A stretch of DNA of 63,810 bases, counting the filler. It is 7 parts of 7 records of this genome, joined end to end, with 100 filler letters (N's around TTAATTAATTAA, not from the genome) between each part and the next. Parts side by side here need not be neighbours in the genome. Positions count along the whole stretch, not along the records: positions 24,153 to 31,314 come from DRR723986_22421; 6 more parts are not named here. One strand, written 5' to 3'. Numbering within the stretch: the stretch's first letter is position 1; every line of letters starts with the position of its first letter. Position numbers and translations under genes: made by a program. Positions 170 through 31,314 of the stretch are shown here, in pieces. Under the pieces are notes generated by a model. That model saw only the letters and a program-made list of their open reading frames with translations, was not told the DNA's origin and searched no databases.

Positions 170-175
170 GCTCAA

Positions 176-5570: not shown

Positions 5571-5619
5571 ATTGTTTTAAAAAATAATTCAGCATATTTG
5601 AATACTAAAGCAATAGATC

Positions 5620-7187: not shown

Positions 7188-7196
7188 GGTTCTAAA

Positions 7197-8423
7197 CTAT
7201 CGATTGTAAGGGTATTCATTAATCCAATGAAACCCTCTTGCGACAAGTGGATATTCTGACACCAGTTTTCGAGTACCATTTACTTTGCTGATATTCTCGC
7301 CTATCCTCAACTCAAGTTCATATTCCTGATCAGAGAGTTCTCTTATGGATAGCTCATCCGGCTCTTCTTCATTCTCACGGTTTTTAATGCTGATTTTCCC
7401 ATCAGGATTGATTTCTTGAATAGATAGAAACTCCCTTTCTCCATCTTTTCTTATTAACATTAAGTAGTTAGATTCCACCACTACTTTGTCCCAAGCTATA
7501 GCCTCCTCAGCCTCGAATCCACTATAGATTCCCTCCCACTCATTTTGGTGTACCCGAAATTTTTGCCCTTGATAATGACCAACCATTCTCGTAATTGGAA
7601 TAACACCAACATAGTAGATATTGATTAAAAGCCAGATAATCTGGTATTTCCTTTTCGTGAAATACGGCTTTAGCTCTCCCAAACTGGTAGTCTTTTGAAG
7701 AAGAAAAAAATCAAAAATTGCTTTCAAACTAGGTAATAATACCAGAATGGAGAAAACGAGAAGATGCGATGAAAATAGCTTTACGGGTACGTCGAAAGAG
7801 AAATTCACTAAAACTATATTGGTACAAACGGCAATTGAGATTAAAGCACCTAATACAACGGTTCGTCGGAAAAGCAATAAAAATCCAGCAAGGATTTCAG
7901 ATACACCCATGAATATCTTATAGGTATCAGAATAACCAAAAAACCTCCATGCTAAGCCCATAGGAGACATTTCCCCGTAAAGTACGTCCATACTATATAG
8001 ACTTGGTCCAGGGAATTGACCAACCAGAAATTTGGCTACTCCATAAGAAATGAGCGTTAGCCCAACAAAATAACGTGCATACACCAATGACCATTTGTAG
8101 AAACCACTGGCATTTTCCCGCACTTTCTTTATGAAAATCATGATCAAACTAATGACGAATGACACGATGATCATAGCTGGAATCATTACATAATCAAAAG
8201 TAGTATCACCACTTCCAGTCATCTCAATTTTTTCAAGAGTTTCAATTCCAAGAATAGATTTGCCGAAAAAAAGTATAAAACTGGTCTTTAACTGAATAAA
8301 ATACTTGCTGAATAATTCGTAAGTAAAAGGGATGTTATCCAGAGGAAAAGGAAATCCATAAATAAAAATATAGAGACCTACCCAGATCATCAAAAAGCCC
8401 TTTAAAACAGTTATTTTCTTCAT
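7197..8423 (-). CDS. Polytopic membrane protein, DoxX-like
   Basis: Several TM helices; TGSGDTT, YG..K...QF, SPMGLAWRFFGYS, N..FDVPVKLFS motifs typical of a Bacteroidota DoxX-like family. Confidence 0.65.
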   Translation of the reverse strand: MKKITVLKGFLMIWVGLYIFIYGFPFPLDNIPFTYELFSKYFIQLKTSFILFFGKSILGIETLEKIEMTGSGDTTFDYVMIPAMIIVSFVISLIMIFIKKVRENASGFYKWSLVYARYFVGLTLISYGVAKFLVGQFPGPSLYSMDVLYGEMSPMGLAWRFFGYSDTYKIFMGVSEILAGFLLLFRRTVVLGALISIAVCTNIVLVNFSFDVPVKLFSSHLLVFSILVLLPSLKAIFDFFLLQKTTSLGELKPYFTKRKYQIIWLLINIYYVGVIPITRMVGHYQGQKFRVHQNEWEGIYSGFEAEEAIAWDKVVVESNYLMLIRKDGEREFLSIQEINPDGKISIKNRENEEEPDELSIRELSDQEYELELRIGENISKVNGTRKLVSEYPLVARGFHWINEYPYNR

Positions 8424-8589
8424 AGTTTAGATAAATTACCTTGTCAAAATAGGTGAAAATCTAAAATTAAGGAAACGAAAATCCGGCTCTTAACTAATTT
8501 TATGAGTGTTTCTGAATAGAACTTTTTCAAATATTTCAAAAAGAAAGTCACTTACCTCATTTCCTGAAACACAAGACGCCTAAAAAGCA

Positions 8590-8625
8590 AAAAACCACCT
8601 GCCGATCTCTCAGCAGGTGGTTTTT
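8590..8625 (-). terminator. Intrinsic terminator of the S9 peptidase gene
   Basis: AAAAACCACCTGC-10 nt-GCAGGTGGTTTTT hairpin about 20 nt past the stop. Confidence 0.8.
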
Positions 8626-8645
8626 CTATGAAAATCTAAATAAGG

Positions 8646-10724
8646 TTAGCGAACTACTTTTTTGTAATCGGTCACCAAATGCTTGATGAAAAACTCCATC
8701 ATTCTGTCTCTGTTCAAGGCAGTATGACCTCCATCTGGAGCGATCTGAACTTCAATGCTTTTGCCTGCATCCTGAAACGCTTTGATCAGCATCAAAGAAT
8801 TGGAAGGGTGTACGTTGTTATCTGCAGTTCCAAAGAAAATCAACAATTCGCCTTGTAATTGGTCTGCTTTGTTCATCAGGCTAAATCTATTGTAACCTTC
8901 CTCATTATTATCCAACGTACTCATGAAACGCTCTGTATAGATATTATCATACAATCTCCAGTCCGTTACTGAAGAGTTTGCAACACCCGCGTGAACCAAC
9001 TCTGGGAATCTAAGCAACATGGAAGCTGCGGTAGTTCCACCATAAGACGTCCCGTAAACACCTACTCTATCCTTATCGAAATAAGGTCTGTCATGAAGTG
9101 ATTTGATGCCTTCGGCAAAATCATCCATCTCAACCAAACCGAGATTTCCGTATAACTGATCTAGTAATTCCTTACCTCTACCTTTTACATTTCTACCATC
9201 GATATTCAATACCAGAAAGCCATATTCTGTCAATGGATCCGGAAGTGTAAAGTTCTCGCGAAATGCATTTGTAGCTGGTCCACCGTAATTACTTAAGATA
9301 ACAGGATACTTTTTGCTAGGATCAAAATCAGATGGGAAGTGAATCATTCCATGTAATTCCGTCACACCGTCTTTAGAAGTAAAGGTGAATACCTCAACTT
9401 TTTTCAAGCCCAGCTCCTCAAATTTGCTCATGTCACTTTTCGCCAACTCAGCGACCACTTTACCTTTGGCATCCACCAAATTAGTGAATGGAGGGATGTC
9501 ATGCGTTTGGGCTATATCCACAAAATATTTTCCGTCCGGAGAAATCGATACTGAGTGATTTAGTGAAGGATCAGTCAATCTAGTATCTTTCTTACCATCC
9601 AATTGTACACGGTGAAGCTGCATTAGCATGTGATTGTCTCCGCTACGAGCCATGTAATAAAGTAACTCAGCATCCTCATCCACTTTGACGATATTAGAAA
9701 CCTCAAAAGGATGAGTGGTAATAGCATTGACCAATGTTCCATCAAAATTATACAAGTAGTAATTATTGAAACCTGATCTCTCGGAAGCCCATATAAAGTG
9801 CTCACCATCTTCCAAAACTTTCATTTCAGGAGAATTCTCCACAAAACTTGGAAGCCACTCTTCACGGATCACTGTTCTACTTTTACCAGTTTCAGGATTT
9901 GCCGCGCGAAGTTCAAGTATATTCTGACGTCTATTGGTACTGTGGAAAAGCAATTCTTTGCCATCAGGAGTCCAAGACAGATCATAAATGTAAGTTCCTA
10001 AATCACCGTCACTGTAAGGCTTACCATCTCTGATGTCCAATTCAGTCATCTTTTTCGTAGCCAAGTCATAGACCATCAAATCAACTGGAAGATTTGGCTC
10101 ACCAACTTTTGGGTAGGCCTCTACTTCTAAGGAATCATATAATTCCAACTGATTCAAAAGCACATAATATTTTTTTACATCCTTTTCATCAAATCTATAG
10201 AAAGCGATTTTGCTACCATCAGGAGACCACCACATGGCAGTGTTTTGGCCAAGCTCTTCCCCATAAACCCAAGTTGCAATCCCGTATTTAATCTGATTTT
10301 CTTCGTTGCCATCCGTGGTGATAGCTATTACATTGCTACCATCAGCATTGCTGAGGAACATATTTCTATCCTTGGTGAATGCTTTGTATTTGCCATCGGG
10401 AGACTCTGCTGAATCAAACTGACGCCCTCTGGCTGGTCGGTTCCAAGCTCTTCGCTCAGGCTTGGGGATTTCTCCAGCTTCCGTCGCTTTTTTTGTTTTT
10501 ACAGAAAAAGACTGAAGTTTGCCACTTTCGACATATTCAAAAGATTTGCTGTCTTCAGCCCAAGTTACATTTAGGCTTCCAGGTTTTACTGCAGACCTCA
10601 ATTGAGGGGCTATTTTTTGATATTGCTCATAGCCAGGCATGCTTTTTAGCTTGTCTTGAGCTTGTGAAACTGAAATGGTTGTAGCTAAAGCCGCAGCCAT
10701 TGTAAGGAAGAACTTATTCTTCAT
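8646..10724 (-). CDS. Dipeptidyl peptidase IV-like S9B peptidase
   Basis: Signal peptide; WVYGEE, WWSPDG, YPKVG; catalytic GTSYGG, DNNVH, GGH. Confidence 0.92.
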   Translation of the reverse strand: MKNKFFLTMAAALATTISVSQAQDKLKSMPGYEQYQKIAPQLRSAVKPGSLNVTWAEDSKSFEYVESGKLQSFSVKTKKATEAGEIPKPERRAWNRPARGRQFDSAESPDGKYKAFTKDRNMFLSNADGSNVIAITTDGNEENQIKYGIATWVYGEELGQNTAMWWSPDGSKIAFYRFDEKDVKKYYVLLNQLELYDSLEVEAYPKVGEPNLPVDLMVYDLATKKMTELDIRDGKPYSDGDLGTYIYDLSWTPDGKELLFHSTNRRQNILELRAANPETGKSRTVIREEWLPSFVENSPEMKVLEDGEHFIWASERSGFNNYYLYNFDGTLVNAITTHPFEVSNIVKVDEDAELLYYMARSGDNHMLMQLHRVQLDGKKDTRLTDPSLNHSVSISPDGKYFVDIAQTHDIPPFTNLVDAKGKVVAELAKSDMSKFEELGLKKVEVFTFTSKDGVTELHGMIHFPSDFDPSKKYPVILSNYGGPATNAFRENFTLPDPLTEYGFLVLNIDGRNVKGRGKELLDQLYGNLGLVEMDDFAEGIKSLHDRPYFDKDRVGVYGTSYGGTTAASMLLRFPELVHAGVANSSVTDWRLYDNIYTERFMSTLDNNEEGYNRFSLMNKADQLQGELLIFFGTADNNVHPSNSLMLIKAFQDAGKSIEVQIAPDGGHTALNRDRMMEFFIKHLVTDYKKVVR

Positions 10725-10931
10725 ATACTATTCGGGTTAAGTTTATTCTAGTTGCGATGATACTATTTTTAGATGTAAAAAGCAGGGATAAATACACAAT
10801 AGGTTACTGGGACTCATTAAATATTACTTTTCACGCTAATGTCCTTCAGGTAAAATCTGATTACACGGCTTAGAAATTTGTAACCAATAAGGAACATTAT
10901 GCATCCTAAGGAGAATCAACAGACTTTCAAT

Positions 10932-12014
10932 ATGAAGCCCTTAAATTCAGCATTTAAGCTTTTCTTAGGAATATTTTTCCTCTTACAACTTAATTCTCTA
11001 TCTGCATTTTCTCAATCATTAGCAGTTAAGATTGACTCTTTGCTGGAAACCACTTTTTCACCAGATGGTCCAGGAGCAGTTTTCTTAGTGGCAAAAGCTG
11101 GCGAACCTATTTATAGAAAAGCATTTGGGAAGGCAAACTTAGAACTCAATGTCTCCATGACTCCCGCAAATGTCTTCGAAATTGGTTCCATGACCAAGCA
11201 GTTTACTGCCATTTCTATTTTGATGCTACTGGAGCAAGGAAAGCTTCAGCTTGATGATGAAATCACGAAATTTATCCCAAATTACCCTACTCAAGGCAAA
11301 AGAATTACAGTCCATCATCTGTTAACTCACACATCTGGAATAAAAAGCTTCACCAGTATGAAGTCTTTAAGAGCTATCGAAAGGCAAGATCTTACTCCTG
11401 CCGAACTGGTGGATTTCTTCAAAAACGAACCGATGGATTTTGAACCTGGAGAGGAGTTCAAATACAACAACTCAGGCTATGTGGTTTTGGGATATATCAT
11501 CGAAAAGCTATCAGGAAAAACTTTTGCTGATTTTGTCCAAGACAATATTTTTCAAAAACTCGGAATGAATTCTTCCCAATACGCCAGCCATTCCCAGGTC
11601 ATAGAAAACCGAGCCTATGGTTATCATCAAAAAGACAATTATGTAAATAAGAATTACATCAGTTTGAGTTTGCCTTATTCTTCCGGCTCGCTGATGTCCA
11701 CCGTAGATGACATGCTCAAATGGAATGAAGCGCTCAAAAAGAATTCGCTTATCAAAGCAGAAACCAAGGCCAACGCTTTTGAAAATCACACCTTGAACAA
11801 CGGCGACAAGATCAATTACGGCTACGGCTGGCATATCAGCAATATAGATGACTCCCCAAGTTTAGAGCATGGTGGCAGCATTTTCGGCTTCAAATCCATG
11901 GGAGTCTATTTACCCGAAGAAGATATTTATGTGATCGGATTGAGCAATTGCGACTGCAATTCGCCTACTACTTTGACTAGAGATATTGCTCACCTTACCT
12001 TGGAGAATTTTTAG
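10932..12014 (+). CDS. Serine hydrolase, beta-lactamase/PBP (AmpC-like) family
   Basis: SMTK (SxxK), YNN (YxN), LLTHTSG, HGG; signal peptide from ATG 10932 (alternative start 10899). Confidence 0.88.
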   Translation: MKPLNSAFKLFLGIFFLLQLNSLSAFSQSLAVKIDSLLETTFSPDGPGAVFLVAKAGEPIYRKAFGKANLELNVSMTPANVFEIGSMTKQFTAISILMLLEQGKLQLDDEITKFIPNYPTQGKRITVHHLLTHTSGIKSFTSMKSLRAIERQDLTPAELVDFFKNEPMDFEPGEEFKYNNSGYVVLGYIIEKLSGKTFADFVQDNIFQKLGMNSSQYASHSQVIENRAYGYHQKDNYVNKNYISLSLPYSSGSLMSTVDDMLKWNEALKKNSLIKAETKANAFENHTLNNGDKINYGYGWHISNIDDSPSLEHGGSIFGFKSMGVYLPEEDIYVIGLSNCDCNSPTTLTRDIAHLTLENF

Positions 12015-12150
12015 CTACCAGATTAATTTATATGTTCTATTGAGATCATCTCTGCAACAACCCCCTGATCCTTATGAATTGAATTTCCCTCCTCACAAAA
12101 TCTCCATATATTGGATTTGTAAAGTAAAAAACCCTACTATAACCTTATTT

Positions 12151-13083
12151 ATGGAATACAGAAAGTTAGGAAACACTGGTTTGGACCTTTCCATTCTAGG
12201 ATTTGGAGCGTCGCCTATGGGAGATGTTTTTAATGTTTCTGACGAAAAAGACGGTTACCGAGCCGTAGCCTATGCGATCGATCATGGTGTGAATTTTTTC
12301 GATGTCTCTCCCTTTTATGGCCTTACCCTGGCAGAAAAGCGACTTGGAAATGCTTTAGAAGGAAAGCGGGACAAAGTGATTTTAGCAACTAAATGTGGGA
12401 GATATGACTTAAAGGAATTTGATTTCTCCGAAAAGCGAATTCTCAAAAGTGTGGATGAATCTCTTGCCAGACTGAAAACAGACTATATAGATGTACTTCA
12501 GCTCCACGACATTGAGTTTGTGGAAAAAGAACAAATTCTTAATGAAGCCTGGCCAACCTTAGTCAAACTCAAAGAATCCGGAAAAGCACGATTCATAGGG
12601 ATCACAGGTTTACCGGTAAACTACCTTGCTGAAATAACGAGAAACATAGACGTGGACACAGTTCTATCCTGGGCACATTATAATTTGCTGGAGGATGAAA
12701 TCAACCGTGAACTCGTGCCACTTTCCAAGAAGAAAGGTTTCGGTCTGATGAACGCTGCACCTTTGATGCAACGCATTCTATCGGATGCTCCATTGCCAGA
12801 ATGGCATCGTTCTCCGCAAGCAATGAAGGATATGCAATCCAAACTCTTGGCTCTTTGCGCTAGCTATGGAGTGAAGCTAAGCGATGTGGCTATTCGCTAT
12901 GCCTTGGATCATCCTGATATTTCTACCACAATCGTAGGAATGTGTGATTTAGCCACCATCACCCAGAACGTAGGCGTGATTGATTTCCGAATTCCTGATG
13001 GACTTTTGGAAGAAATCGAAACGCTTGTCGCTCCAGTCAAAAACCAAATGTGGTACGAAGGAAAGCCTGAGAATAATATATAA
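12151..13083 (+). CDS. Aldo/keto reductase, L-galactose/L-fucose dehydrogenase-like
   Basis: MEYRKLGNTG, GFGASPMG, FFDVSPFYG, ATKCGRY, LQLHDIEF, IGITGLP; start moved to ATG 12151. Confidence 0.85.
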   Translation: MEYRKLGNTGLDLSILGFGASPMGDVFNVSDEKDGYRAVAYAIDHGVNFFDVSPFYGLTLAEKRLGNALEGKRDKVILATKCGRYDLKEFDFSEKRILKSVDESLARLKTDYIDVLQLHDIEFVEKEQILNEAWPTLVKLKESGKARFIGITGLPVNYLAEITRNIDVDTVLSWAHYNLLEDEINRELVPLSKKKGFGLMNAAPLMQRILSDAPLPEWHRSPQAMKDMQSKLLALCASYGVKLSDVAIRYALDHPDISTTIVGMCDLATITQNVGVIDFRIPDGLLEEIETLVAPVKNQMWYEGKPENNI

Positions 13084-13086
13084 GCT

Positions 13087-13303
13087 GGGAGACCGAAGAC
13101 GGGAGACGGAAGTGGCGTTCATCGCAAACAATGGAGAGCCTGTCCCGATTCGTCGGGAAGTGAAGCGATCTTAATGAGCTAATGAAATTGCTTCGTACCT
13201 CGCAATGACGGAAGAGTAAGACAATCTGATTGTAAAAAGTAAAATATGTCAAGACAAATCAGGTATGGTTACCATTCCTTCGGTCTTCGGTCTCCCGTCT
13301 TCC
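13087..13303. repeat. Composite intergenic repeat: inverted heptamer tracts flanking REP-like hairpins
   Basis: GGGAGACCGAAGACGGGAGACGGAAG (13087-13112) and inverted tract CTTCGGTCTTCGGTCTCCCGTCTTCC (13278-13303); TCCCGA-TTCG-TCGGGA (13143-13158); ATTGCTTCGTACCTCGCAATGAC (13187-13209). Confidence 0.7.
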
Positions 13304-13378
13304 TGCCTGTCAATCAAATAATAGAAGGTTAATATTATAATATAAGTCAAATACAAAAACCTATTAAAACCAAACCTC

Positions 13379-14398
13379 ATGAAAGCATTAGTACTTACAG
13401 ATATCGGAAAAACTGAACTCCGTGAAGTAGCAAAACCAAGCCCAAAAGCTGGACAGGTTCTCCTAAAAGTCGGCATGGTTGGCTTTTGCGGAGGTGATCT
13501 GAATAGTTACAGAGGTCTTTTTCCGCTACAGGAATATCCAAATATCCTCGGACATGAAGTGGGGGGAACTATAGAAGAACTGGGAGATGATGTGCCTGAA
13601 AGTATAAAAGTCGGAATGAAAGTGACGGTTTACCCTTACTTGAATTGCGAAAAATGCATCGCTTGCCGCAAGGGCGCCCGCAATGCCTGCAAGGAAAATA
13701 AGACCATGGGCGTACGTCGCCCTGGTGCCATGTGCCGATACATTGCCTTGCCTTGGCAAGATGTGTTTCCTTCGGAAAAATTATCTCTTCGGGAATTAGC
13801 TTTAGCGGAGCCGCTAACAGTTGGTTTTCACTCTGTGAATCGCGCAAAGGTTACAGCTCAGGATCGAGTGGCAGTGATTGGTTGTGGAATTGTAGGATTA
13901 GGCGCAATAGCATCAGCCGTGAATAAAGGAGCTGAAGTGATCGCCATTGATCTGGACGACGCAAAGCTAGAAATCGCAAAAAAAATCGGTGTAAGCCACA
14001 CCATTAATCCCAAGAAGGTGGATCTGCACCAAACATTGCAGGAAGTGACTACGAACGATGGTCCAGATGTAATCATTGAAGCTGTGGGCAGTCCGATCAC
14101 TTATCGACAAGCTGTAGAAGAAGTTGCATTTACTGGTCGGGTTGTCTGCATTGGCTACGCAAAAGCACCCGTGGAATTCAATACCTCCCTATTCGTTCAA
14201 AAAGAAATAGAAATCCTCGGATCAAGAAACTGCACCACTGAATTCCCAGAGGTAATTGAATATTTGGAACAAGGAAAATTCCCAGTAAATGAAGTGATCA
14301 GCAAAGTGGTGACCATCGATGAGTCAGAAAAAGCGCTGGCAGACTGGGCTCAGGACCAGCAAGGAATAATTAAAATAATGATTGATTTTGACAAATAA
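13379..14398 (+). CDS. Zn-dependent dehydrogenase, L-galactonate/L-gluconate 5-dehydrogenase-like
   Basis: GFCGGD, GHE, CxxCxxC...C structural zinc site, AEPLTVG, GCGIVG, ILGSRN. Confidence 0.85.
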   Translation: MKALVLTDIGKTELREVAKPSPKAGQVLLKVGMVGFCGGDLNSYRGLFPLQEYPNILGHEVGGTIEELGDDVPESIKVGMKVTVYPYLNCEKCIACRKGARNACKENKTMGVRRPGAMCRYIALPWQDVFPSEKLSLRELALAEPLTVGFHSVNRAKVTAQDRVAVIGCGIVGLGAIASAVNKGAEVIAIDLDDAKLEIAKKIGVSHTINPKKVDLHQTLQEVTTNDGPDVIIEAVGSPITYRQAVEEVAFTGRVVCIGYAKAPVEFNTSLFVQKEIEILGSRNCTTEFPEVIEYLEQGKFPVNEVISKVVTIDESEKALADWAQDQQGIIKIMIDFDK

Positions 14399-14402
14399 GA
14401 AA

Positions 14403-15218
14403 ATGATAAAATCCTGCGTAACGATTGCTCTAGTACCTGAAATTAAAAGTGGACCTTGGATTTTTTGGGAAGACCTGGAAACTGGAATGGAAAAAGCTTC
14501 CCGACTTGGATTCGATTCAATAGAACTTTTCACTGCTTCGGCGGACGCGATTGCAATACCAAGACTAAAAGAACTTCTTGAAAAATATAACTTAGAACTT
14601 GCTGCTGTAGGAACTGGAGCCGGAAAGGTAATTCATGGTCTGACCCTATCTGACCCGGATTCAAAAATTAGAGAGAAAGCCATTTCATTCATCTCTGATA
14701 TGATTGACTTCGGAGCAGCTTTCGGAGCTCCGGCAATTATTGGCTCAATGCAGGGAAATATCTTACCCGGAAACGAACGGGAAGAAACCATGTCTTGGTT
14801 GGCAGAAGGCTTGAATCAATTAGGCAAGCAAGCCGAATCCAAAGGAGTTACACTGATCTACGAACCCCTAAATCGCTACGAAACCAACTTGCTCAACACC
14901 ATTGAAGACGGTTCAAAATTGCTAAAAAGTCTGGAAACCAAGTCTATAAAACTTCTGGCCGATCTATTTCACATGAATATTGAAGAAGGGAACTTAGAAG
15001 AAAGCATCCTGAATTGGGGCAAATACATTGGGCATGTTCACTTTGCAGATAGCAATAGAAGACCTATGGGTTTTGGACATACTTCGATGAAGGAAATAGC
15101 CCTGGCGCTGAAAGCAGTTGGTTACACTGGCTATGCTTCGGCAGAAGCTTTTCCCTACCCGACCCCTGATGAAGCAGCTGAGAAGACGATAGAGGAGTTT
15201 AGGAAATGGTTTCGGTGA
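14403..15218 (+). CDS. TIM-barrel sugar isomerase/epimerase, IolO (5-keto-L-gluconate epimerase)-like
   Basis: YEPLNRYET, DLFHMNIEE, HVHFADSNR, IIGSMQG motifs. Confidence 0.8.
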   Translation: MIKSCVTIALVPEIKSGPWIFWEDLETGMEKASRLGFDSIELFTASADAIAIPRLKELLEKYNLELAAVGTGAGKVIHGLTLSDPDSKIREKAISFISDMIDFGAAFGAPAIIGSMQGNILPGNEREETMSWLAEGLNQLGKQAESKGVTLIYEPLNRYETNLLNTIEDGSKLLKSLETKSIKLLADLFHMNIEEGNLEESILNWGKYIGHVHFADSNRRPMGFGHTSMKEIALALKAVGYTGYASAEAFPYPTPDEAAEKTIEEFRKWFR

Positions 15219-15246
15219 TTTGAGATTTGAGATTTGAGATTTGAGA
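15217..15246 (+). repeat. Heptamer tandem repeat (GATTTGA) at contig end
   Basis: Four full copies plus GA running into the spacer; likely cause of the assembly break. Confidence 0.9.
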
Positions 15247-15346
15247 NNNNNNNNNNNNNNNNNNNNNNNNNNNNNNNNNNNNNNNNNNNNTTAATTAATT
15301 AANNNNNNNNNNNNNNNNNNNNNNNNNNNNNNNNNNNNNNNNNNNN
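15247..15346. other. Artificial contig spacer
   Basis: N44-TTAATTAATTAA-N44; composition and apparent taxon change across it. Confidence 0.98.
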
Positions 15347-15478
15347 GTCCGTTCGAAATCACTCATGGATTCAGGGGACTCGTGATGCTGAAAGTAAATT
15401 GTCGCCTCGTCCACTACGGGGAAGGCAACTCAACGTGAATTTTGCAAGACGGCCAGTGAACTTCGGCAAATCGCGTTC

Positions 15479-15530
15479 AGCAATACTAATTCAGCACATA
15501 AGATAGCAATACTAATTCAGCGCATAAGAT
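15479..15530. repeat. 26-bp tandem duplication covering the stop codon of the adjacent gene
   Basis: AGCAATACTAATTCAGC(A/G)CATAAGAT at 15479-15504 and 15505-15530, one mismatch. Confidence 0.9.
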
Positions 15531-16551
15531 GCAGTGAAGCAGATTGAATTCGCAGTTTCACTATTTGCTCCTGCACAATTTCTTGCGAAGTCTCATCGTC
15601 GAATAGCAGAATATCTATGTAGGCATGTTCGGATCCGTATGCGCCGCCCAAGACCCGCCCGCTACATTCATGCTGAAGCGTTTCGTCGATTGCATCTTCC
15701 ATCTGAGCACGTACGTTAGCCTGATCGCCATCAGGCAACATTGAGCAGTCGAACGCGATGTAACAGAGGCGTGCACCGGTCGCATCAAGCGGGTTTTCTT
15801 CCAGGGTGCCTTCCCCAAGTATGAACTCGATGATGACGTGCGGCAGCAGCGTTGTGCCGACCAAGGTGTCGCCACGCGGTCCTGCATATCGTTCGGGAAG
15901 TTGATAAGACGAATAGGCTTCCGTCGGGATCAGCTTTTCCCATTTATGGTAGGCATCTACCGAGCGAATGTATTCGGGCAATTGTTCCAGAGGCCTCCTG
16001 CGTGGTGCGTCTTCCGCAATCGGTTCGAGCTTAATGTCCCCGATCCAACTCTGCGTTCCGAACTCACCCAATGCCTCATCGAGCATTAGAAACAACACCT
16101 GGTGCTGAACCTCTTCCGGGATCGATTCGAACGCGTCGTGCCAGGCAACAATGTCAATCGCCTCCGATTCTTCGTCGACGTTCGTCTGTACAAAGAGCGA
16201 TTTACCATCCACGCGTCCTGAGTCCCCAAGGTCAAGCATGATGTTGTCTAGCGCGCCGGGTTGTCGAGAGCCATAGAACGTCCAGCCTTCGATCTCCAGG
16301 GAACGACGCAACCATTCAACGGCCAGCAATTGCTTTGCAAGGATACCTTCGCCAGATACGGTGAATGCGTGCCCTTTCCCCTCACCCGGGCCGAAGGACC
16401 AAGCGAGTCCCGGCATGTTATCGGCCATAAAACAACTCACTTCATCAGTAAGTTGTTCGCAGTTTCCGTCATTGATTGTTTGGTAGAACCTGTCGGCTAC
16501 CGTGGGGAACCAGTCCCAAAAACTCGTAACACCAGCTTTAAAGGTCGGCAT
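15517..16551 (-). CDS. Hypothetical acidic protein
   Basis: 344-aa ORF with FWDWF and FLMLDEALGE motifs; no function assignable. Confidence 0.75.
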   Translation of the reverse strand: MPTFKAGVTSFWDWFPTVADRFYQTINDGNCEQLTDEVSCFMADNMPGLAWSFGPGEGKGHAFTVSGEGILAKQLLAVEWLRRSLEIEGWTFYGSRQPGALDNIMLDLGDSGRVDGKSLFVQTNVDEESEAIDIVAWHDAFESIPEEVQHQVLFLMLDEALGEFGTQSWIGDIKLEPIAEDAPRRRPLEQLPEYIRSVDAYHKWEKLIPTEAYSSYQLPERYAGPRGDTLVGTTLLPHVIIEFILGEGTLEENPLDATGARLCYIAFDCSMLPDGDQANVRAQMEDAIDETLQHECSGRVLGGAYGSEHAYIDILLFDDETSQEIVQEQIVKLRIQSASLHLMR

Positions 16552-19901: not shown

Positions 19902-20012
19902 GGCACGAGTCGGCACGAGTCCCAGAGCTCAGATGTCGAGGGCGCAGATTTATAGAGTCACAGATTTGTAGAGTCACAAATTACCAGAGCTAGGATTTAT
20001 CGAGCCACAGAC
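19902..20012. repeat. Degenerate 15-16 bp direct-repeat array plus 10-bp doublet
   Basis: GGCACGAGTC twice (19902-19921); six units approximating AGAGYCACAGATTTRT starting at 19924, 19939, 19954, 19970, 19986 and 20001. Confidence 0.65.
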
Positions 20013-24152: not shown

Positions 24153-24164
24153 GCGGCCCCACCA
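24153..24164 (+). tRNA. Possible tRNA 3' end fragment
   Basis: Contig begins GCGGCCCCACCA (acceptor-strand-like plus CCA); only 12 nt visible. Confidence 0.3.
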
Positions 24165-24255
24165 CGAGAGACTGCGCGGTTCAAAAGATTTGCAAAGGAA
24201 GGGTCCATATACACGGTTTGACGCGCAGGGCAAGGCCGCCGCGCGTCAAATCAGG

Positions 24256-25656
24256 TTAGCCTCGCGCAGCTGCAAAAAGCCCATAGCGCAGGTTCAGGCG
24301 GCGGGCGGTCTGGGACAGCACCACAAGGGTCAGCATCGCCATCAGAACCTCGGACACCGGACCGGCAATCCAGATCCCCAATTCGCCCATGAACAGGGGC
24401 AAGGCAAAGGTCAGTGGCAGTGCAAAGGCATAGGGTTTGGTCAGCCCAAGCACCGCCGCCCGTGTCGCATCCCCCAGCGCCTGAAAGTAGGAGGCAATCA
24501 CGATCATTGGCCCTGCCAGCCAGAACATCACAGTGGTGACCTGCAAGATCCATTCAAACGCCTCGATCACCGCAGGATCGGCCACAAAGAGCCGCGCAAT
24601 CGGCTGTGCCAAGGCGACAAAGACCACCTGACACCCAAGGCAATAGAGGAATGCGATCCAGATCCCGATCCGCAAGCTGCGGTCCGAACGGTCCAGCGCC
24701 CGCGCGCCGTAGTTGTTTCCGACAATGGTTTGCAGCGCATGGGTCAGCCCCAGAAGCGGCAAAAAGGCAAAGGTCATCACGCGGGTGATGATGCCATAGG
24801 CAGACACGGTGGCGGCATATTGCGGCGCGTTCACCATTTGCAGCGCCAGCAGAATCGCGGTTGATCCCAGGGCCACGCCAATGAAGTTCAGGCTTTGCGG
24901 CGCACCAAGGGCGAGAATGCGGCCCCAATCACTGGTCAACGGGGCCTGCAAAAGGGTTTTGGGGGTCAGCAGGGTTTTGCCCGACATCCGAAACCCGATC
25001 ACGATCAGGATCGTCACCAGCTGCGCCAGCGCCGTGCCATAGGCCGATCCGGCCACGCCCATATCCAGCAGTGCGATCAGGACATAATTGAAAGCGATGT
25101 TGAGCAGAGACACTGACAAGCTGAGCGCGGCCATAACACCGACATGCCCCTCGTTGCGCAGCGCATCGGAATTGACGCTCAGCACAAAAAGCAGCGGCGA
25201 CATGATCATGGTGATCGCCAGATAGGTCTGGGCCATGTCGGCCAAGGTGGCAGAGCCGGCCGCAAGGAACCGCGCAACCGCAGGGCCAAACGCCAGATAG
25301 GTTAGCACCAGCAGAACGCCGACAAAGAGCGCAAGACCATGCGCACCGGCAAACACCGCACGCGCCGCGTCATGTTCGCCCGCGCCAAGGTGGCGGGCCA
25401 GTTTGCTGGACATGCCGTTGCTGACCAAGGTCGCCAGCGCCACGATAAGCATGAACAACGGAAAGATCAGGGTCACAGCGCCAAGCGCTTCGGCCCCGAC
25501 ATAGCGACCCAGAAAGATCGCATCGACCACCGTCAGCAGACCGTTCATCGACATCACAAAGATGATCGGCAGGGCGGTCTTGGCAAAGATCGGGCCAAGC
25601 GGCCCATGGGTGAAAGGATTTTGCGGAGAAGGATCCACAGAAGAATTAGGGGACAT
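24256..25656 (-). CDS. MATE family efflux transporter
   Basis: About 12 TM helices; VDAIFLGRYVG, LRNEG, GVAGSAYGTALAQ, IVGNNYGA; start MSPNS at 25656. Confidence 0.92.
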   Translation of the reverse strand: MSPNSSVDPSPQNPFTHGPLGPIFAKTALPIIFVMSMNGLLTVVDAIFLGRYVGAEALGAVTLIFPLFMLIVALATLVSNGMSSKLARHLGAGEHDAARAVFAGAHGLALFVGVLLVLTYLAFGPAVARFLAAGSATLADMAQTYLAITMIMSPLLFVLSVNSDALRNEGHVGVMAALSLSVSLLNIAFNYVLIALLDMGVAGSAYGTALAQLVTILIVIGFRMSGKTLLTPKTLLQAPLTSDWGRILALGAPQSLNFIGVALGSTAILLALQMVNAPQYAATVSAYGIITRVMTFAFLPLLGLTHALQTIVGNNYGARALDRSDRSLRIGIWIAFLYCLGCQVVFVALAQPIARLFVADPAVIEAFEWILQVTTVMFWLAGPMIVIASYFQALGDATRAAVLGLTKPYAFALPLTFALPLFMGELGIWIAGPVSEVLMAMLTLVVLSQTARRLNLRYGLFAAARG

Positions 25657-25933
25657 GATTGGCCTCACAAACACGTTCCGCATTTTCGAAAGGGGCCCGC
25701 GTTTCCCACCGGCAGAACAGGGTAGGTCCAAGAATCGTTCCGACACTTCACCGGTATTGCGGGCGGCAGGCGGTCGGGCCCTGCCATGGGCTTAGTCGGG
25801 TTTGCGGCAAATAACAATGTCTGTTGCGCCCCGATTTGGGGCATTGCCCTGACAAGGTACGCACATCGCCCAGTTGTCGCCCAATTCTCGGCCACTTCTT
25901 CGCTCATTCCTTAATACAAGATGAACAGCAAGG

Positions 25934-26476
25934 ATGGGTGCAGTGACAGCGACAGCAGACTTTATGGAGGGCGAGGATGCTTCCTTTTTGTCAGAAGACA
26001 AACAAACCTGTGCGATATACGACCGACCAACCGACGAGGCCCGCGTGATGCAACGCTCGGTGCAACGTCTGATGGGCGCGTCATTGATGGTTGCGGCGGT
26101 TGGCCTTTGGGTTTTGCCGGGATCAAGCTGGGATACCGATCTGCTGCTTTTTAAACTGGCACTGTCGTTGACGGGCGGTTTGGCAGGGTTCGGCTTGCTT
26201 TTGGCCAGCAGCACACCCCGCGATCCGCGGGTGGAGATTGACACGATCCGCCGCGAGGTGCGGGTGGTGCGCCCGGCGAAAGGGGTCGGAGACATCATCT
26301 TGCGGCGCTGCTGCTTTGACGATCTGGCCCGCGCCGAACAGGACGGCCCGCGGGTGCGCATGTGGGACCGGAACGACGACTTGCTGGTGGACATCACAAT
26401 GAAGAATCGCGACGCCCTTTTTAGCCTCGTGGGGGGGCTGAAGGACGTCGGGAAACTGGGGCAGAATGCCGGATAA
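25934..26476 (+). CDS. Hypothetical membrane protein (two TM helices plus soluble domain)
   Basis: ORF with AAGG upstream; two hydrophobic helices, then PRVEIDTIRREVRV. Confidence 0.75.
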   Translation: MGAVTATADFMEGEDASFLSEDKQTCAIYDRPTDEARVMQRSVQRLMGASLMVAAVGLWVLPGSSWDTDLLLFKLALSLTGGLAGFGLLLASSTPRDPRVEIDTIRREVRVVRPAKGVGDIILRRCCFDDLARAEQDGPRVRMWDRNDDLLVDITMKNRDALFSLVGGLKDVGKLGQNAG

Positions 26477-26620
26477 CGCTGGGCAAAAGCCCGCAAAAAG
26501 CAGAACGCTTGCGTAACCTGGGCAGAACGCCCGCCAAACCGGTGCAGAACGCCCGGTCAAGACAGGCAGAACGCCTGAAAGGTCAGGGCAGAACGCCCGC
26601 AGCACAGGCAGAATGCCTTG
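26460..26620 (+). repeat. Array of eight mini-hairpins, core GC-AGAAY-GC, mostly 22-nt period; candidate structured RNA
   Basis: Cores begin at 26461, 26483 (AAAA loop variant), 26500, 26522, 26544, 26566, 26588 and 26608; flanks differ but remain complementary. Confidence 0.85.
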
Positions 26621-26632
26621 AGACCACCCAAC

Positions 26633-26665
26633 AACGCCCCGGCAAAAGCCGGGGCGTTTGTTTTT
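26633..26665 (+). terminator. Intrinsic terminator closing the hairpin array
   Basis: AACGCCCCGGC-AAAA-GCCGGGGCGTT followed by TGTTTTT. Confidence 0.85.
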
Positions 26666-26787
26666 GCGCCGCTCATCGCAGCCCAATGTTCATAAATGCG
26701 CAGACCCTGTTCAGCCCTGTTCAATTGCGCTTGCCTATCTGATCCCCATTTTGGCCTGCACAAACGCAAACCAACGGAGCGACCCAA

Positions 26788-27366
26788 ATGAAAAACGCAA
26801 TTCTTGCCTCGGCCCTTGGCCTGACCACCGTGCTGGCCGGACCAGCCTTTGCCGCAGAGAAATATGTGCTGGATGCCAGCCACAGCCAGATCCTGTTTGA
26901 GTACAACCACCTTGGTTTTTCCACGACCTATGGCATGTTCTCCGGCTTTGAAGGCGAGATCATGTTTGACGAGGCCGCACCGGAGGCGTCTTCTGTTACG
27001 GTCTCGATGCCTGTGATGTCGATGTTCACCGGCTGGGAAGAGCGCCACGCGCATTTCATGTCGCCTGATTTCTTTGCGGCAGGGGACGACGAAATGGTCA
27101 GCTTTGCCTCAACCGGAATCGAAGTGACGGGTGAGGATACCGCGCTGATCACGGGCGATCTGACGCTAAATGATGTGACCAAATCGGTGGTTCTGGATGC
27201 CAAGCTGAACCAGAAGGGCGATCACCCGATGGCGGGCAAGCCCTGGATGGGCTTTGATGCCACCACAACTTTGGTGCGTTCGGATTACAACCTTGGCAAA
27301 TTTGCACCGTTTGTCAGCGACGAAGTGCAGGTGAAGATCTCTATCGAGGCGATGAAAGCCGATTAA
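26788..27366 (+). CDS. YceI family periplasmic protein
   Basis: Signal peptide; YVLDASHS, HLGFS, GDLTL..VTK.V.L, RSDYNLG, V.ISIEA. Confidence 0.92.
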   Translation: MKNAILASALGLTTVLAGPAFAAEKYVLDASHSQILFEYNHLGFSTTYGMFSGFEGEIMFDEAAPEASSVTVSMPVMSMFTGWEERHAHFMSPDFFAAGDDEMVSFASTGIEVTGEDTALITGDLTLNDVTKSVVLDAKLNQKGDHPMAGKPWMGFDATTTLVRSDYNLGKFAPFVSDEVQVKISIEAMKAD

Positions 27367-27387
27367 GCCTTCACTCCGAGACTGAAC

Positions 27388-27418
27388 AAAGGCCGCCGGG
27401 CATCTCCGGCGGCCTTTT
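27388..27418. terminator. Bidirectional terminator
   Basis: AAAGGCCGCCGG-6 nt-CCGGCGGCCTTTT between convergent genes. Confidence 0.85.
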
Positions 27419-27419
27419 G

Positions 27420-28619
27420 TTATTCTGCGCCGCGCACAGCGGTCAGCGTGATCTTGACGCGCACCTCAAAGCCCAGTGTTGCGGGATCATTCACGTTGTC
27501 CCCAATCCCAAAGCTGCGCCGGTCCAGTGTCAGATCACCGCGCATTTCGGCGCGATTGCCATCAACCGACAGGCTGAACGGCAGGGTCAACGGCACGGTC
27601 TGATCCTTGATGGTCAGGGTGCCGATGGCCTCATACCCGTCAGAGGCATGTCTGATATCCGCTTTGAACACCGCCGCGGGGTGATCGGTGGCGGCAAAAA
27701 AGTCGGGGCCAAGCGCTTGACCCGTCACAGACCCGAGGGTGAGTGAGGGGATGGAGACCGTGGTTTCGACATTGCCGACTGTGATATCCGCGGTTGGTAC
27801 GGTTTCATCAAAGGTGATGACAGACGTCCAATCGGCGAAACTGCCGGCGATTTCAGAGCCGAACTGCACCACGGTAATCTCGATGGTGCCGGTTTCGACC
27901 TGCCACTGTGATGTAACCTCGGCCAATGCTTCGGGTGCGGCTTCGGTCTTGCTGCCTGCCATCGCTGCTGACAGGCCAAGCGCCGCGAGCCAAAGCGCAA
28001 TGGCGGCCATCACAGGTGTGCGGCTGTGGCGTCGATCGGGCAGGGGCGGCAGGTCCGGGCGGCCCGGTAGCATCCGGCGCAGCGTGGAGTCGCGGTCAAT
28101 CACGTGGTGTTTCACCGCGCCCGCAATATGCAACAGCAATGACAGGATCAGCAGCCGCCCGGACACCCAATGCAGCGCACCAAAGAAATGCTCGACCGCG
28201 GTGGATTTTGGCACCATCGGCAGACCCTGCCCAAAGGGCCACCAGATCGGTGCAAACCCCGCCGCCGCCGCATGAGAGATCCAGCCGGACAGCGGCACCA
28301 CAACCATCGCGGCGTAGAGCATCCAATGCACGGTGTCCGCCGCCCAGCTTTCCAGTTTTTTGTCCGCGTTCAGGAGGCCGGGCTTGGGCTGGTTCATGGC
28401 CCAGATGATCCGCAGGACAGCAAGGAAAAATGCCAGCACGCCCAATGTTTTATGCAGTGAAAACAGCCATGCCTTGCGGGCCAGTTCTGCGTCTGTGTCA
28501 AAGGGCAACTGGTGCGCAATCCACCCCATCGGGATCAGCGAGAGGATCAGCAAGGCCATCAGCCAGTGGATCGCTTTTGTCACCGCGCCATAGCGGGTTT
28601 GGGTGTTGGATAAGGACAT
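27420..28619 (-). CDS. Cytochrome b561-YceI fusion protein
   Basis: RYG...IHW, HKTLG, HWMLY, HIAGAVKHH heme-ligand helices; C-terminal YceI domain (LDRRSFGIG); AGGAG RBS. Confidence 0.9.
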   Translation of the reverse strand: MSLSNTQTRYGAVTKAIHWLMALLILSLIPMGWIAHQLPFDTDAELARKAWLFSLHKTLGVLAFFLAVLRIIWAMNQPKPGLLNADKKLESWAADTVHWMLYAAMVVVPLSGWISHAAAAGFAPIWWPFGQGLPMVPKSTAVEHFFGALHWVSGRLLILSLLLHIAGAVKHHVIDRDSTLRRMLPGRPDLPPLPDRRHSRTPVMAAIALWLAALGLSAAMAGSKTEAAPEALAEVTSQWQVETGTIEITVVQFGSEIAGSFADWTSVITFDETVPTADITVGNVETTVSIPSLTLGSVTGQALGPDFFAATDHPAAVFKADIRHASDGYEAIGTLTIKDQTVPLTLPFSLSVDGNRAEMRGDLTLDRRSFGIGDNVNDPATLGFEVRVKITLTAVRGAE

Positions 28620-28760
28620 CGTCAACTCCTGCCTTGGGTTTGGATCAACCTAAGGGGCAATCTGGCCAAGACAATGACAATCCATGCACAATGCCTCTGC
28701 ACTCTTGTTCAGGGGGGCGGTGCAGGCTAGACCAAGGGCCACTGAAAAGAAGGGGCCATC

Positions 28761-29693
28761 ATGAGCATCGCATTCGTATTTCCCGGACAGGGCGCACAGA
28801 CAATCGGCATGGGCCGCGCATTGGCCGAAGCCTATCCTGAGGCGCGGGCCGTTTTTGATGAGGTCGACGCGGCGCTGGGTGAAAAGCTGTCGGATTTGAT
28901 CTGGGAGGGTGAGATCGAGGCCCTGACCCTGACGGAGAACGCGCAGCCCGCCCTGATGGCCACCTCGATGGCGGCGATGGCGGCGCTGAAGGCCGAAGGC
29001 ATTGGGCTTGATCGCGCAGCTTTTGTGGCGGGGCATTCGCTGGGTGAATATTCGGCGCTTTGCGCGGCGGGCACCTTGTCCCTGGCCGATACCGCACGGT
29101 TGTTGCGCATTCGCGGCAAGGCAATGCAGGCGGCGGTGCCTGTGGGCCAAGGCGCAATGGCGGCGGTGCTGGGGCTGGATGCGGAGAAAGCCGCGAAGGT
29201 GGCTGAAGATGCGGCGCAGGGCGATGTGTGCCAATTGGCCAATGAAAACGATCCGACACAAAACGTTTTGTCTGGCAGCAAGGCGGCGATTGAACGGGCG
29301 GTTGTTCTGGCCAAAGAAGCAGGCGCAAAACGCGCCCTGCCATTGCCTGTGTCTGCCCCGTTTCACTGCGCCCTGATGCAGCCCGCAGCAGATGAAATGG
29401 CCCGCGCCTTGGGCGAGGTCACGATGAATGCGCCGCAGGTGCCGTTGGTGGCGAATGTCACAGCGGAGGCGGTGACCGATGCAGGTCAGATCCGCGATTT
29501 GCTGGTGCAGCAGGTGACCGGGCGCGTGCGCTGGCGGTCTTCGGTGGAATGGATGGCCGCGCAGGGCGTGACCGAATTTTGGGAAATCGGCGCGGGCAAA
29601 GCCCTTTCTGGCATGATCCGCCGGATCGCCAAAGACAGCGCGATGCGGGCCATCGGCACGCCCGATGATGTTACGGCGGCCAAAGACGCCTGA
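28761..29693 (+). CDS. fabD: Malonyl-CoA:ACP transacylase
   Basis: FPGQGAQ, TENAQPA, GHSLGEY, VSAPFHC. Confidence 0.97.
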   Translation: MSIAFVFPGQGAQTIGMGRALAEAYPEARAVFDEVDAALGEKLSDLIWEGEIEALTLTENAQPALMATSMAAMAALKAEGIGLDRAAFVAGHSLGEYSALCAAGTLSLADTARLLRIRGKAMQAAVPVGQGAMAAVLGLDAEKAAKVAEDAAQGDVCQLANENDPTQNVLSGSKAAIERAVVLAKEAGAKRALPLPVSAPFHCALMQPAADEMARALGEVTMNAPQVPLVANVTAEAVTDAGQIRDLLVQQVTGRVRWRSSVEWMAAQGVTEFWEIGAGKALSGMIRRIAKDSAMRAIGTPDDVTAAKDA

Positions 29694-30259
29694 TGCGGCT
29701 GGCCGCGCTTTTTGTTGTTGTTCTGGCGGTTCTTGGCTGTGCGATTGCGGACAACGCCGTGGACCGCACAACGATGGAGGTGCGCGGCGGCCAGCTTTGG
29801 ATCAGCGGTGAGATCACCAGCCGCACACCGGCCAATTTTGAGGCGGTGATCGCGGAAAATCCGCAGATTACAGTGGTGGTGCAAGGGGTTATGCCGGGAT
29901 CACTGGATGATCAGGCGGTGTTGAGAATGGGGTACTTTGTGCGGGATCGCGGGCTGAACACCCATTTGACAGCGCAAAGCGAGATTTATTCCGGTGCGGT
30001 GGACCTGTTTTTGGCGGGCGTGCGGCGCAGCGCGCAAAATGGCGCGGTGATCGGGGTGCACAGCTGGGCTGATGGTTTTGGCGAGGGCAGCAGCTATCCC
30101 AAAGACGCGGCAGAACATCGGGCCAATGCACAGTACACCCGCGATATGCTGGGCAGTGATGCGTTTTACTGGTTTACCTTGCAGGCCGCGCCCTCAGACG
30201 GGATACATGAGATGACACGGGGCGAATTGGCGCGGTTTGGCGTGCTGACCCAGCCCTAA
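29693..30259 (+). CDS. Putative lipoprotein with ClpP/crotonase-like fold (COG3904-like)
   Basis: Lipobox VLGC; PGS.DD, SGAVDLFLAG, IGVHSW; TGATG overlap with fabD. Confidence 0.65.
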   Translation: MRLAALFVVVLAVLGCAIADNAVDRTTMEVRGGQLWISGEITSRTPANFEAVIAENPQITVVVQGVMPGSLDDQAVLRMGYFVRDRGLNTHLTAQSEIYSGAVDLFLAGVRRSAQNGAVIGVHSWADGFGEGSSYPKDAAEHRANAQYTRDMLGSDAFYWFTLQAAPSDGIHEMTRGELARFGVLTQP

Positions 30260-30283
30260 ACGAGAAAGAGCAAAGGAAAAGAC

Positions 30284-31021
30284 ATGTTTGATCTGACAGG
30301 TAAAAATGCCCTTGTCACAGGAGCATCCGGCGGGATCGGCGCAGATATTGCCCGCACATTGCACGCACGCGGTGCGGCGGTCGGCCTGTCCGGCACCCGC
30401 ACTGAGCCGCTTGAGGCGCTGAAGGCGGAACTGGGCGAGCGGGCGCATGTGCTGCCGTGCAACCTGAGCGATATGGAGGCGGTTGATGCGCTGCCCAAAC
30501 AGGCGGCAGAAGCGATGGGATCGGTTGATATTCTGGTCAACAACGCCGGGATCACCCGCGACAATCTGTTCATGCGGATGTCGGATGATGAATGGCAGTC
30601 GGTACTGAACGTGAATCTGACCGCGACGTTCAAGCTGTGCAAAGGGGTGATGCGCGGCATGATGAAGGCCCGATGGGGCCGGATTGTGAATATTTCCAGC
30701 GTGGTCGGCGCCACCGGCAACCCCGGTCAGGCCAATTATGCGGCGTCCAAAGCAGGCATGGTGGGCATGTCCAAGTCGCTGGCTTGTGAGGTTGCGAGCC
30801 GCGGGATCACAGTAAATGCGGTTGCGCCCGGATTTATCACCACGGCGATGACCGATAAGCTGACCGATGATCAAAAGGCTGGAATCATGGGGCAAATCCC
30901 TGCCGGGCGCATGGGCGAGCCATCCGAGATTGCCGCTGCTGTGGTCTATCTTTCGAGCAACGAAGCGGCCTATGTGACCGGGACCACCTTGCATGTGAAC
31001 GGCGGCATGGCCATGTTGTAG
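30284..31021 (+). CDS. fabG: 3-oxoacyl-ACP reductase
   Basis: TGASGGIG, NNAGITRD, YAASK, HVNGGM. Confidence 0.97.
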   Translation: MFDLTGKNALVTGASGGIGADIARTLHARGAAVGLSGTRTEPLEALKAELGERAHVLPCNLSDMEAVDALPKQAAEAMGSVDILVNNAGITRDNLFMRMSDDEWQSVLNVNLTATFKLCKGVMRGMMKARWGRIVNISSVVGATGNPGQANYAASKAGMVGMSKSLACEVASRGITVNAVAPGFITTAMTDKLTDDQKAGIMGQIPAGRMGEPSEIAAAVVYLSSNEAAYVTGTTLHVNGGMAML

Positions 31022-31221
31022 CCTCTGACGCAAAACGTTTGCCTGATAGGATTGATATGGTAAACGAGGCGCAGATTCGTATCGAGGGGTGCTTGATCGC
31101 ACCCTATTCCCTGTGCGAACAGGGGAAATAGCCGCCTCGGCAACGGGGTAATTTCCAAGCGTCGATCAACGGCGTGCGGATAGAAAGGGCCCAAACAGGG
31201 CCAAAGACATGAGGACTTATT

Positions 31222-31314
31222 ATGAGCGACGTCGCAGACCGCGTGAAAAAAATCGTTGTGGAACACCTTGGTGTTGAAGAGGACAAAGTGACCGAGAATG
31301 CGTCGTTCATCGAC
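31222..31314 (+). CDS. acpP: Acyl carrier protein, 3'-truncated
   Basis: [31 protein letters not shown] after a GAGG RBS, downstream of fabG. Confidence 0.95.

Follow-up and report, generated by a model that had tools for sequence, protein, structure and literature searches.

An array of eight AGAA-loop hairpins between a small membrane-protein gene and yceI in a lineage of Rhodobacterales

Repetitive extragenic palindromes and the bacterial interspersed mosaic elements built from them (REP/BIME) are short, GC-rich, imperfect extragenic palindromes that often lie behind genes within transcripts and are sometimes clustered; the BOX elements of Streptococcus pneumoniae are modular and consist of a boxA, a boxB repeated n times and a boxC. 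Among RNAs, CsrB and RsmZ act on CsrA/RsmA by titration, and cuckoo/CcsR of Rhodobacter is made of repeated constant-loop stem-loops transcribed with and behind a small gene. These are the described systems closest to the element treated here, a tandem array of eight short hairpin units, spaced by about 22 nt, at positions 26460-26618 on the plus strand of a DNA stretch of 63,810 nucleotides (the window: seven parts of seven records joined end to end with filler, positions 24,153 to 31,314 coming from DRR723986_22421). The array lies on the coding strand between the end of an open reading frame (ORF) that encodes a membrane protein of 180 aa and an intrinsic terminator with an 11-bp stem, beyond which follows a gene of the yceI family. 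We favour, tentatively, the reading that it is a selectively maintained and lineage-specific block of eight GC hairpins in a 3' untranslated region (3'-UTR), with A-R-A-A-N loops closed by GC...GC, and that it acts as RNA.

Like CsrB/RsmZ, the array strings together numerous short hairpins that share a loop motif while their stems and linkers vary, and it closes with a terminator; unlike in these RNAs, its loops are AGAAC, AGAAT or AAAA, none of them with the GGA of the CsrA/RsmA site, and it stands in what would be an mRNA tail, with no promoter of its own seen, no Rfam match and an occurrence limited to 2 of 113 genomes of the genus. The cuckoo/CcsR RNAs, from the same bacterial order, share the repeated constant-loop stem-loops behind a small gene, but their loops are CCUCCUCCC as against AGAAN, the array units are far smaller, the protein encoded upstream of the array is without a Pfam family and no Rfam family matches at threshold. 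The type III toxin-antitoxin RNA ToxI offers the same order of tandem repeats, terminator and gene, whereas the gene downstream here encodes a YceI protein (PF04264) and not an endoribonuclease toxin, and the array repeats are 22 nt long and diverged where ToxI units are near-identical and about 36 nt long. Iteron origins have near-identical repeats of 17-22 bp; only 9-13 bp are common to the array units, and no rep gene adjoins them. As the first-pass annotation of the locus had supposed on recognising no family with such loops, no Rfam family reached its gathering score anywhere in the window; the best sub-threshold match, sX6 (24.8 bits against 40), rests on the terminator hairpin. A word search of the literature for roseobacter small RNAs and stem-loops yielded nothing relevant, and the core 11-mers were found, in 27 papers, only within primers or unrelated sequences.

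Anatomy and pairing of the array

Seven of the eight cores are GCAGAAYGC, at 26461, 26500, 26522, 26544, 26566, 26588 and 26608 (+), and the eighth is GCAAAAGC at 26483 (+). The window as a whole holds nine copies of GCAGAAYGC where 1.90 are expected (sd 1.29), a count reached in 0 of 100 shuffles, and the two copies outside the array, at 20179 (-) and 25311 (+), are both devoid of pairing flanks. Tandem Repeats Finder reports a period of 22 over 26500-26617. The tracts that are identical between units measure 9-13 nt only.

The units, all read on the plus strand, are as follows. Unit 1 (26460-26470), with arms GGC/GCC and loop AGAAT, lies within the coding sequence, among the final codons of the ORF at 25934-26476, whose stop codon occupies 26474-26476; unit 2 (26481-26492) starts 5 nt past that stop codon and has arms GGGC/GCCC around a 4-nt loop, AAAA. 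Unit 3 (26498-26510) pairs AAGC with GCTT around AGAAC, and unit 4 (26520-26532) pairs GGGC with GCCC around the same loop. The longest, unit 5 (26538-26557), is written ACCGG(T)GC/AGAAC/GCCCGGT, with seven pairs and one bulged T, and folds at -9.4 kcal/mol on its own. Unit 6 (26563-26577) has arms CAGGC/GCCTG and unit 7 (26586-26598) arms GGGC/GCCC, both around AGAAC, and unit 8 (26606-26618) closes the series with AGGC/AGAAT/GCCT. The eight cores with their arms, the start within the last codons of the gene and the closing 11-bp hairpin with its T tract (26633-26658) had all been described in the first-pass annotation, and each was found where it had been placed.

The array stretch folds at -95.9 kcal/mol against a shuffle mean of -78.8 (z = -3.5; 0 of 200 shuffles equal it), the single units have folding energies of -1.7 to -9.4 kcal/mol, and all eight local hairpins form when pairs are limited to partners within 30 nt. 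The statement that the arms differ between units and yet stay paired was borne out by exchanging them: the cognate flanks make 12 Watson-Crick pairs beyond the core against a mean of 6.7 for swapped 3' flanks, and 12 is reached by 1.2% of 5040 permutations. In a pair-count and covariation analysis applied to the seven units with 5-nt loops, 80% of cells are paired, compared with 20-43% when the partner is slid; columns 5-17 hold AU in three units and GC in three, columns 6-16 hold GC in five and AU in one, and changes on both sides between units occur in 4 cells where 1.7 are expected. A constant loop with constant closing pairs, complementary arms that differ from unit to unit and free linkers make up the layout of a folded single strand and not that of a duplex operator, in which it is the arms that stay constant and the centre that is free to vary.

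Constraint and distribution among relatives

Relatives were reached via the locus of Aliiruegeria lutimaris (order Rhodobacterales), and genome-wide statements refer to the close relatives G513 and G445 rather than to the window's own genome. The array is present in G513 (95.2% identity to the window over 3031 nt) and in G445 (87% over 1433 nt), where it stands inside a 3.8-Mb contig. A metagenome search with the 180-aa protein found two loci only, contigs L169 and L170, both of which carry the array. Contigs of four of the 22 sequencing runs listed (X11, X12, X14 and X15) were compared with the window; those of X11 and X12, runs of DNA or of unknown kind, bear the array and differ by a few letters in linkers and one loop. 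Five orthologues were thus aligned, in two groups: the window, G513 and L169 on the one hand, G445 and L170 on the other.

The number of units is eight in 5/5 sequences, and the way in which they vary is uneven. In the non-coding part, stems vary at 2 of 64 positions over the five sequences (these two form the outermost pair of unit 5), the AGAA loop bases at 1 of 28 (in unit 3, where G has become A), the fifth loop base at 4 of 6 and the linkers at 17 of 57; between stems and linkers, Fisher P = 7e-5. The conservation of stems in relatives, whose absence the first-pass annotation had named as a refutation of its proposal, is thereby confirmed, and a small-RNA seed in the linkers was rejected, these being the least conserved part. 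When the window is set against G445, 24 of 96 four-fold sites in the small gene have changed (25%), as have 17 of 57 linker positions (30%), in comparison with 1 of 64 stem positions and 0 of 28 AGAA positions; at a rate of 0.25 the binomial P is 2e-7 for the stems and 3e-4 for AGAA.

Units 2, 6 and 8 are unchanged across all five sequences. In G445 and L170 the loop of unit 1 reads AGACT, with the GGC arm preserved one base further out; the loop of unit 3 is AAAAC in G513 and AAAAT in L169, with the same arms; the fifth loop base is G in unit 4 of G445 and T in unit 7 of G445 and L170. The variation of unit 5 is limited to its outermost pair, with A to G in L169 and G513 and T to A in G445 and L170. 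Of these, the A-to-G change turns an A-U into a G-U pair that is possible on plus-strand RNA only, a single and weak sequence pointer to RNA.

Homologous gene conversion would need longer tracts than 9-13 nt to keep the units alike, so that it was judged unlikely as the cause of the identity of the cores; because the shared tracts are of that length, we take the conservation of the array to reflect selection.

Family-wide counts were made on a sample of 401 genomes from a larger group, and genus counts on the set of 113 genomes. The order of small gene and yceI is conserved across the family, and the spacer between them measures 107-227 nt in 30 loci without the array against 311 nt in the window; by this comparison, the spacer between gene and yceI is conserved, and the array fills it in one lineage only. 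Outside the array clade, 15 other genomes of the genus showed one or two isolated two-unit pairs, against 6 matches of a reversed control. No equivalent array was found in the 401 family genomes with a two-unit and a three-unit wide-gap pattern, which matched other things, namely a microsatellite of heptamers in G255 and, in G275 and G314, tandem repeats. The 11-mer GGCAGAANGCC has 22 copies in G445 (four within the array) against 12 for its control, and the 9-mer has 172 in G513 against 71, its copies being scattered singles among the first 100 places listed; in the lineage that carries it, each genome thus has the array at one locus only, and it is not a REP there. A broad scan of species genomes for three GCAGAAYGC units gave at least 120 loci, and the matches listed, all of them either microsatellites of the form (GCAGAAC)n or tandem repeats, close to perfect, from organisms unrelated to these, give no measure of the overall rarity of such arrays.

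Kinship with a dispersed hairpin repeat

While the array is confined to one locus in its own lineage, a hairpin of the same kind is dispersed in other genomes of the family. There it belongs to an element with an A/T-rich head, AAATAYYCTC-N-GGGGG, followed by a variable GC hairpin, whose arms differ from copy to copy yet pair, and then by the hairpin GGGGGC/AGAA(T/G)/GCCCCC; it was examined at loci L258-L297 and L306-L322 of G275, G046, G272 and G226. In G275, GGGCAGAAGGCCC occurs 35 times (control, 1) over at least 10 contigs, the 13-mer GGGCAGAANGCCC also 35 times (reversed control, 1) and the element head 78 times (control, 0). A AAATATCCTCGGGGG-like head precedes the hairpin in 20/20 G275 copies fetched, and 6 of these 20 loci hold two exact modules in the same orientation, 33-35 nt apart; overall, the elements of this genome contain one to four modules, and its tandems two to four in one orientation at distances of 33-36 nt. 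At one G275 locus (L228, 1480-1640), four tandem 36-nt units lie between two carboxylase genes and each carry the hairpin CCGG(T)GGGGC/AGAAG/GCCCCCCGG; the unit, ACCGGTGGGGCAGAAGGCCCCCCGG...TCAAGAC, resembles unit 5 of the window together with the linker that follows it.

The 13-mer is present at least once in 349 of the 401 family genomes (149 copies against 46 for the reversed control in the first 50 genomes listed), and G046, G226, G272, G373 and G359 have 12-15 dispersed copies each against 0-3 for the control. All 20 copies fetched from G046, G272 and G226 stand in the same type of element, with G run, variable hairpin and AGAA(T/G) hairpin, the A/T-rich head being recognisable in 19 of them; an element of G046 has a further hairpin, again with CCAGAAG in the loop. 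In 8 of the 17 longer loci read, an ORF that is already open where the locus begins ends 58-67 nt before the hairpin, at the start of the element; this is no more than a hint of a position just after co-oriented stop codons, as such ORFs are common in GC-rich DNA. At 18 loci the element matched no Rfam family (one match had 23.1 bits against a cut-off of 199.5), and strings from its head and module are absent from the literature searched, so that it appears to be undescribed as far as this search extends.

What the array shares with this element is a GC stem, an AGAAN loop closed by C-G, a single orientation and a start at a stop codon, and two of its units, 4 and 7 (both GGGC/AGAAC/GCCC), conform to the GGGCAGAANGCCC pattern seen in the module core. 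As for REP/BIME of enterobacteria and pseudomonads, the likeness lies in short GC palindromic units behind a stop codon and in a similar hairpin that is multicopy in related genomes; the array is unlike them in being single-locus in its own lineage, in the one orientation, differing arms and shorter length (11-20 nt) of its units, and in that no Y1 (RAYT-type) transposase (PF01797) was found in the three genomes searched, G275, G445 and G513, by a search that was positive in 6 of 14 control genomes. The tens to hundreds of copies expected of a REP are absent from G445 and G513 and were seen only for the related hairpin elsewhere (35 against 1 in G275). Scattering of the unit as an ordinary REP, which the first-pass annotation had named as a refutation of its proposal, is therefore real for the hairpin in other genomes of the family and not for the array's own lineage. 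With BOX, the dispersed element of G275, G046 and G272 has in common a constant head and a variable number of tandem hairpin modules, and the array of the window resembles a run of the repeated module alone; it differs from BOX in that there is no sequence relation, the head is missing from the window, and the units are diverged and conserved between species where BOX copies are near-identical.

Another tandem hairpin repeat of the same family of bacteria, unrelated in sequence to the array, was seen in G314 (L231, 1470-1610), where four tandem 35-nt units behind a stop codon carry the hairpin GCGGGGG/TTTCACA/CCCCCGC and a GCAAAAAGC spacer.

Functional readings and the surrounding locus

On the reading that we favour, the array would have arisen by tandem amplification of a kind of hairpin that serves elsewhere as a dispersed repeat module behind stop codons, or the hairpin would be convergent. 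Filling the space between the stop codon of the small gene and that gene's terminator, it would act as RNA, within the untranslated 3' tail of the mRNA of that gene, which is its natural carrier because the array stands behind the stop codon, before the terminator and on the coding strand. Of the two origins named by the first-pass annotation, a 3'-UTR-derived or an independent RNA, this position agrees with the former; for the latter no sigma-70-like promoter site was seen. The hairpins would form successively during transcription, and a factor specific for this type of hairpin would read the constant loop and closing pairs, which point to such a reader. The main effect would be on the fate of the upstream transcript, through protection of its 3' end, processing or decay; REP elements are a structural barrier to 3' exonucleases. 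Translation termination could also be affected, as unit 1 overlaps the last codons and the stop codon falls between units 1 and 2, and a REP near a stop codon has reportedly been seen to disturb termination. Were all this true, a hairpin of a dispersed repeat would have been amplified in place and kept as part of an mRNA tail, a route to new bacterial RNA elements; and since related genomes carry this hairpin after many of their genes, a factor caught with the array as bait could account for an entire class of repeats in bacteria that form a major marine group.

Several observations weigh against this reading. As regards folding, the local pair probabilities in the unrestricted ensemble range from 0.17 (unit 8) to 0.98 and are at most 0.5 for units 1, 7 and 8, and the structure with all hairpins (-75.3 kcal/mol) lies 18.5 kcal/mol above the minimum free energy, as repeated arms can cross-pair; the local hairpins therefore hinge on folding during transcription, which is assumed. 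The shuffle control of the pair-count analysis was moderate, with 23 of 500 shuffles reaching the both-side changes and 34 of 500 the covariation score, and the percentage of paired cells is no better than in shuffles (193 of 500 reach it). The comparative set consists of five near relatives only, and among them no compensatory substitution was found, because the stems do not change, so that the covariation for which the first-pass annotation proposed a test was not seen among orthologues, and the case for pairing is built on conservation and on comparing units with one another; taken by themselves, unit-specific arm positions give a weak signal, varying at 2 of 20 against the 17 of 57 of the linkers (Fisher P = 0.13 over the five sequences) and at 1 of 20 between the window and G445 (P = 0.024). 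The distribution is narrow: array runs were found with the two-unit pattern in only G445 and G513 of the 113 genus genomes, and the GCARAANGC core in 0 of 30 syntenic spacers outside the array clade. What ties the array to the dispersed element is resemblance only: the head is absent from the window (0 matches with at most one mismatch), and the element copies of G513 (one) and G445 (two) carry the loop AGACA and not AGAAN. A pure exonuclease barrier explains the stems but not the constraint on the AGAA loop, and no candidate binding factor was identified. The metatranscriptome runs X14 and X15 give contigs only at 26790-27398, in yceI, which have no bearing on the array either way.

The proposal of the first-pass annotation was a protein sponge, an RNA that, alone or cut from the mRNA tail, titrates or assembles one RNA-binding protein through its eight loops. 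We consider this unlikely as the role of the array, although a good part of the anatomy speaks for it: eight sites with constant loop and closing pairs, variable arms, free linkers and a strong terminator at the end, no known family that fits, and AGAA bases of which 0 of 28 changed while neutral sites changed at 25%. The same hairpin behind many genes of related genomes would provide possible natural targets, and sponge RNAs turn over fast between lineages, which we count in its favour. On the other side, there would be little to compete with in the array's own lineage, where GGGCAGAANGCCC has three copies in G513 and six in G445, two of each inside the array; the five copies outside it are without repeat or element context, and the 22 copies of GGCAGAANGCC in G445 stand against 12 for the control. 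No sigma-70-like promoter for a separate transcript was found at 25700-26900, in a scan that does not cover other promoter types; metatranscriptome contigs cover yceI only; no candidate protein is at hand; and the array is limited to the two genomes of the genus, with no equivalent in the family sample. A more specific version, that the C-AGAAN-G hairpin is the site of a loop-specific RNA-binding or processing protein of the roseobacter-group family, with the dispersed elements as its targets and the array as a new multivalent decoy or platform, is in our view rather improbable; if true, titration as in the Csr system would be at work here through another motif and another partner, and would be seen shortly after it had arisen.

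It is also unlikely that the array is a selfish or neutral tandem palindrome of REP or BOX type, sitting in a tolerant spacer and conserved by a bias of mutation or repair. Its lineage-specific insertion, its period-22 tandem structure and the multicopy dispersal of the same hairpin, in variable tandem numbers in G275, are what such a repeat would show. Yet the rate of change of stems and loops is at least tenfold below that of four-fold sites and linkers in a comparison that spans two clades, the number of units is constant in all five sequences, the identity between units would be too short for gene conversion, each genome of the lineage has a single locus, and a Y1 transposase was not found in G275, G445 and G513. 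Should the array nonetheless be inert, it would show plainly how far one can be misled by conservation and apparent covariation where palindromes stand in tandem.

Duplex DNA sites, whether operators two helical turns apart that control yceI, the alternative of the first-pass annotation, or iterons that control replication, are very improbable, for although the spacing of about 22 bp is regular, the 9-bp core is constant and its GAAC has a counterpart in the GTTC contained in the TGTTCA repeats that precede yceI, variable complementary arms around a constant centre are the reverse of a protein-bound inverted repeat, the terminator separates the array from yceI, the motif upstream of yceI is unchanged in relatives without the array, no replication gene adjoins and the G445 locus lies in a 3.8-Mb contig. 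Sites for LexA-type proteins or response regulators (GTTC repeats), considered as an explanation of the array, were dropped in view of the 22-bp spacing and the complementary arms.

The genes that frame the array encode, in order, a MatE protein, the small membrane protein, YceI and, beyond it on the opposite strand, a cytochrome b561-YceI fusion. The small gene (25934-26476, +, from the ORF list) encodes 180 aa with predicted membrane segments; the protein matched no Pfam or NCBIfam family, and relatives with identities of up to 47% were found in 133 of the 401 sampled family genomes. In the array clade it ends in GKLGQNAG, as in the window, or GKLAQTAG, whereas in the relatives whose ending was examined, most of them among the closer ones, it ends in GKL plus at most one or two residues; unit 1 therefore sits in a translated extension of four codons.

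The intrinsic terminator (26633-26667, +) is an 11-bp GC-rich hairpin with the loop AAAA, followed by TTTGTTTTT. Terminator-like GC-rich hairpins, some with a T run, stand in several spacers without the array (L121 and L159, for example), and because of these the array probably lies upstream of an older, pre-existing terminator. Downstream, and not part of the array, the motif TGTTCAT-N4-GCGCAG-N4-CTGTTSA (26687-26725, +) includes TGTTCA at 26688, 26709 and 26719; it is conserved in all family loci examined, with the array or without, and in BLAST this stretch alone matches G438 and G413 at 83-97%. It is probably the promoter of yceI or a regulator or operator site. The yceI-family gene itself (26788-27366, +) encodes a periplasmic protein of lipid-binding type (Pfam PF04264, E = 1.6e-39; YceI family in NCBIfam).

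Elsewhere in the window, positions 1-16000 have a G+C content of 38-43%, compared with 50-64% in the remainder, and resemble foreign DNA; short tandem repeats occur at 15217-15530, inside this low-G+C stretch, and at 19902-19989, just outside it, where the G+C content is 54%.

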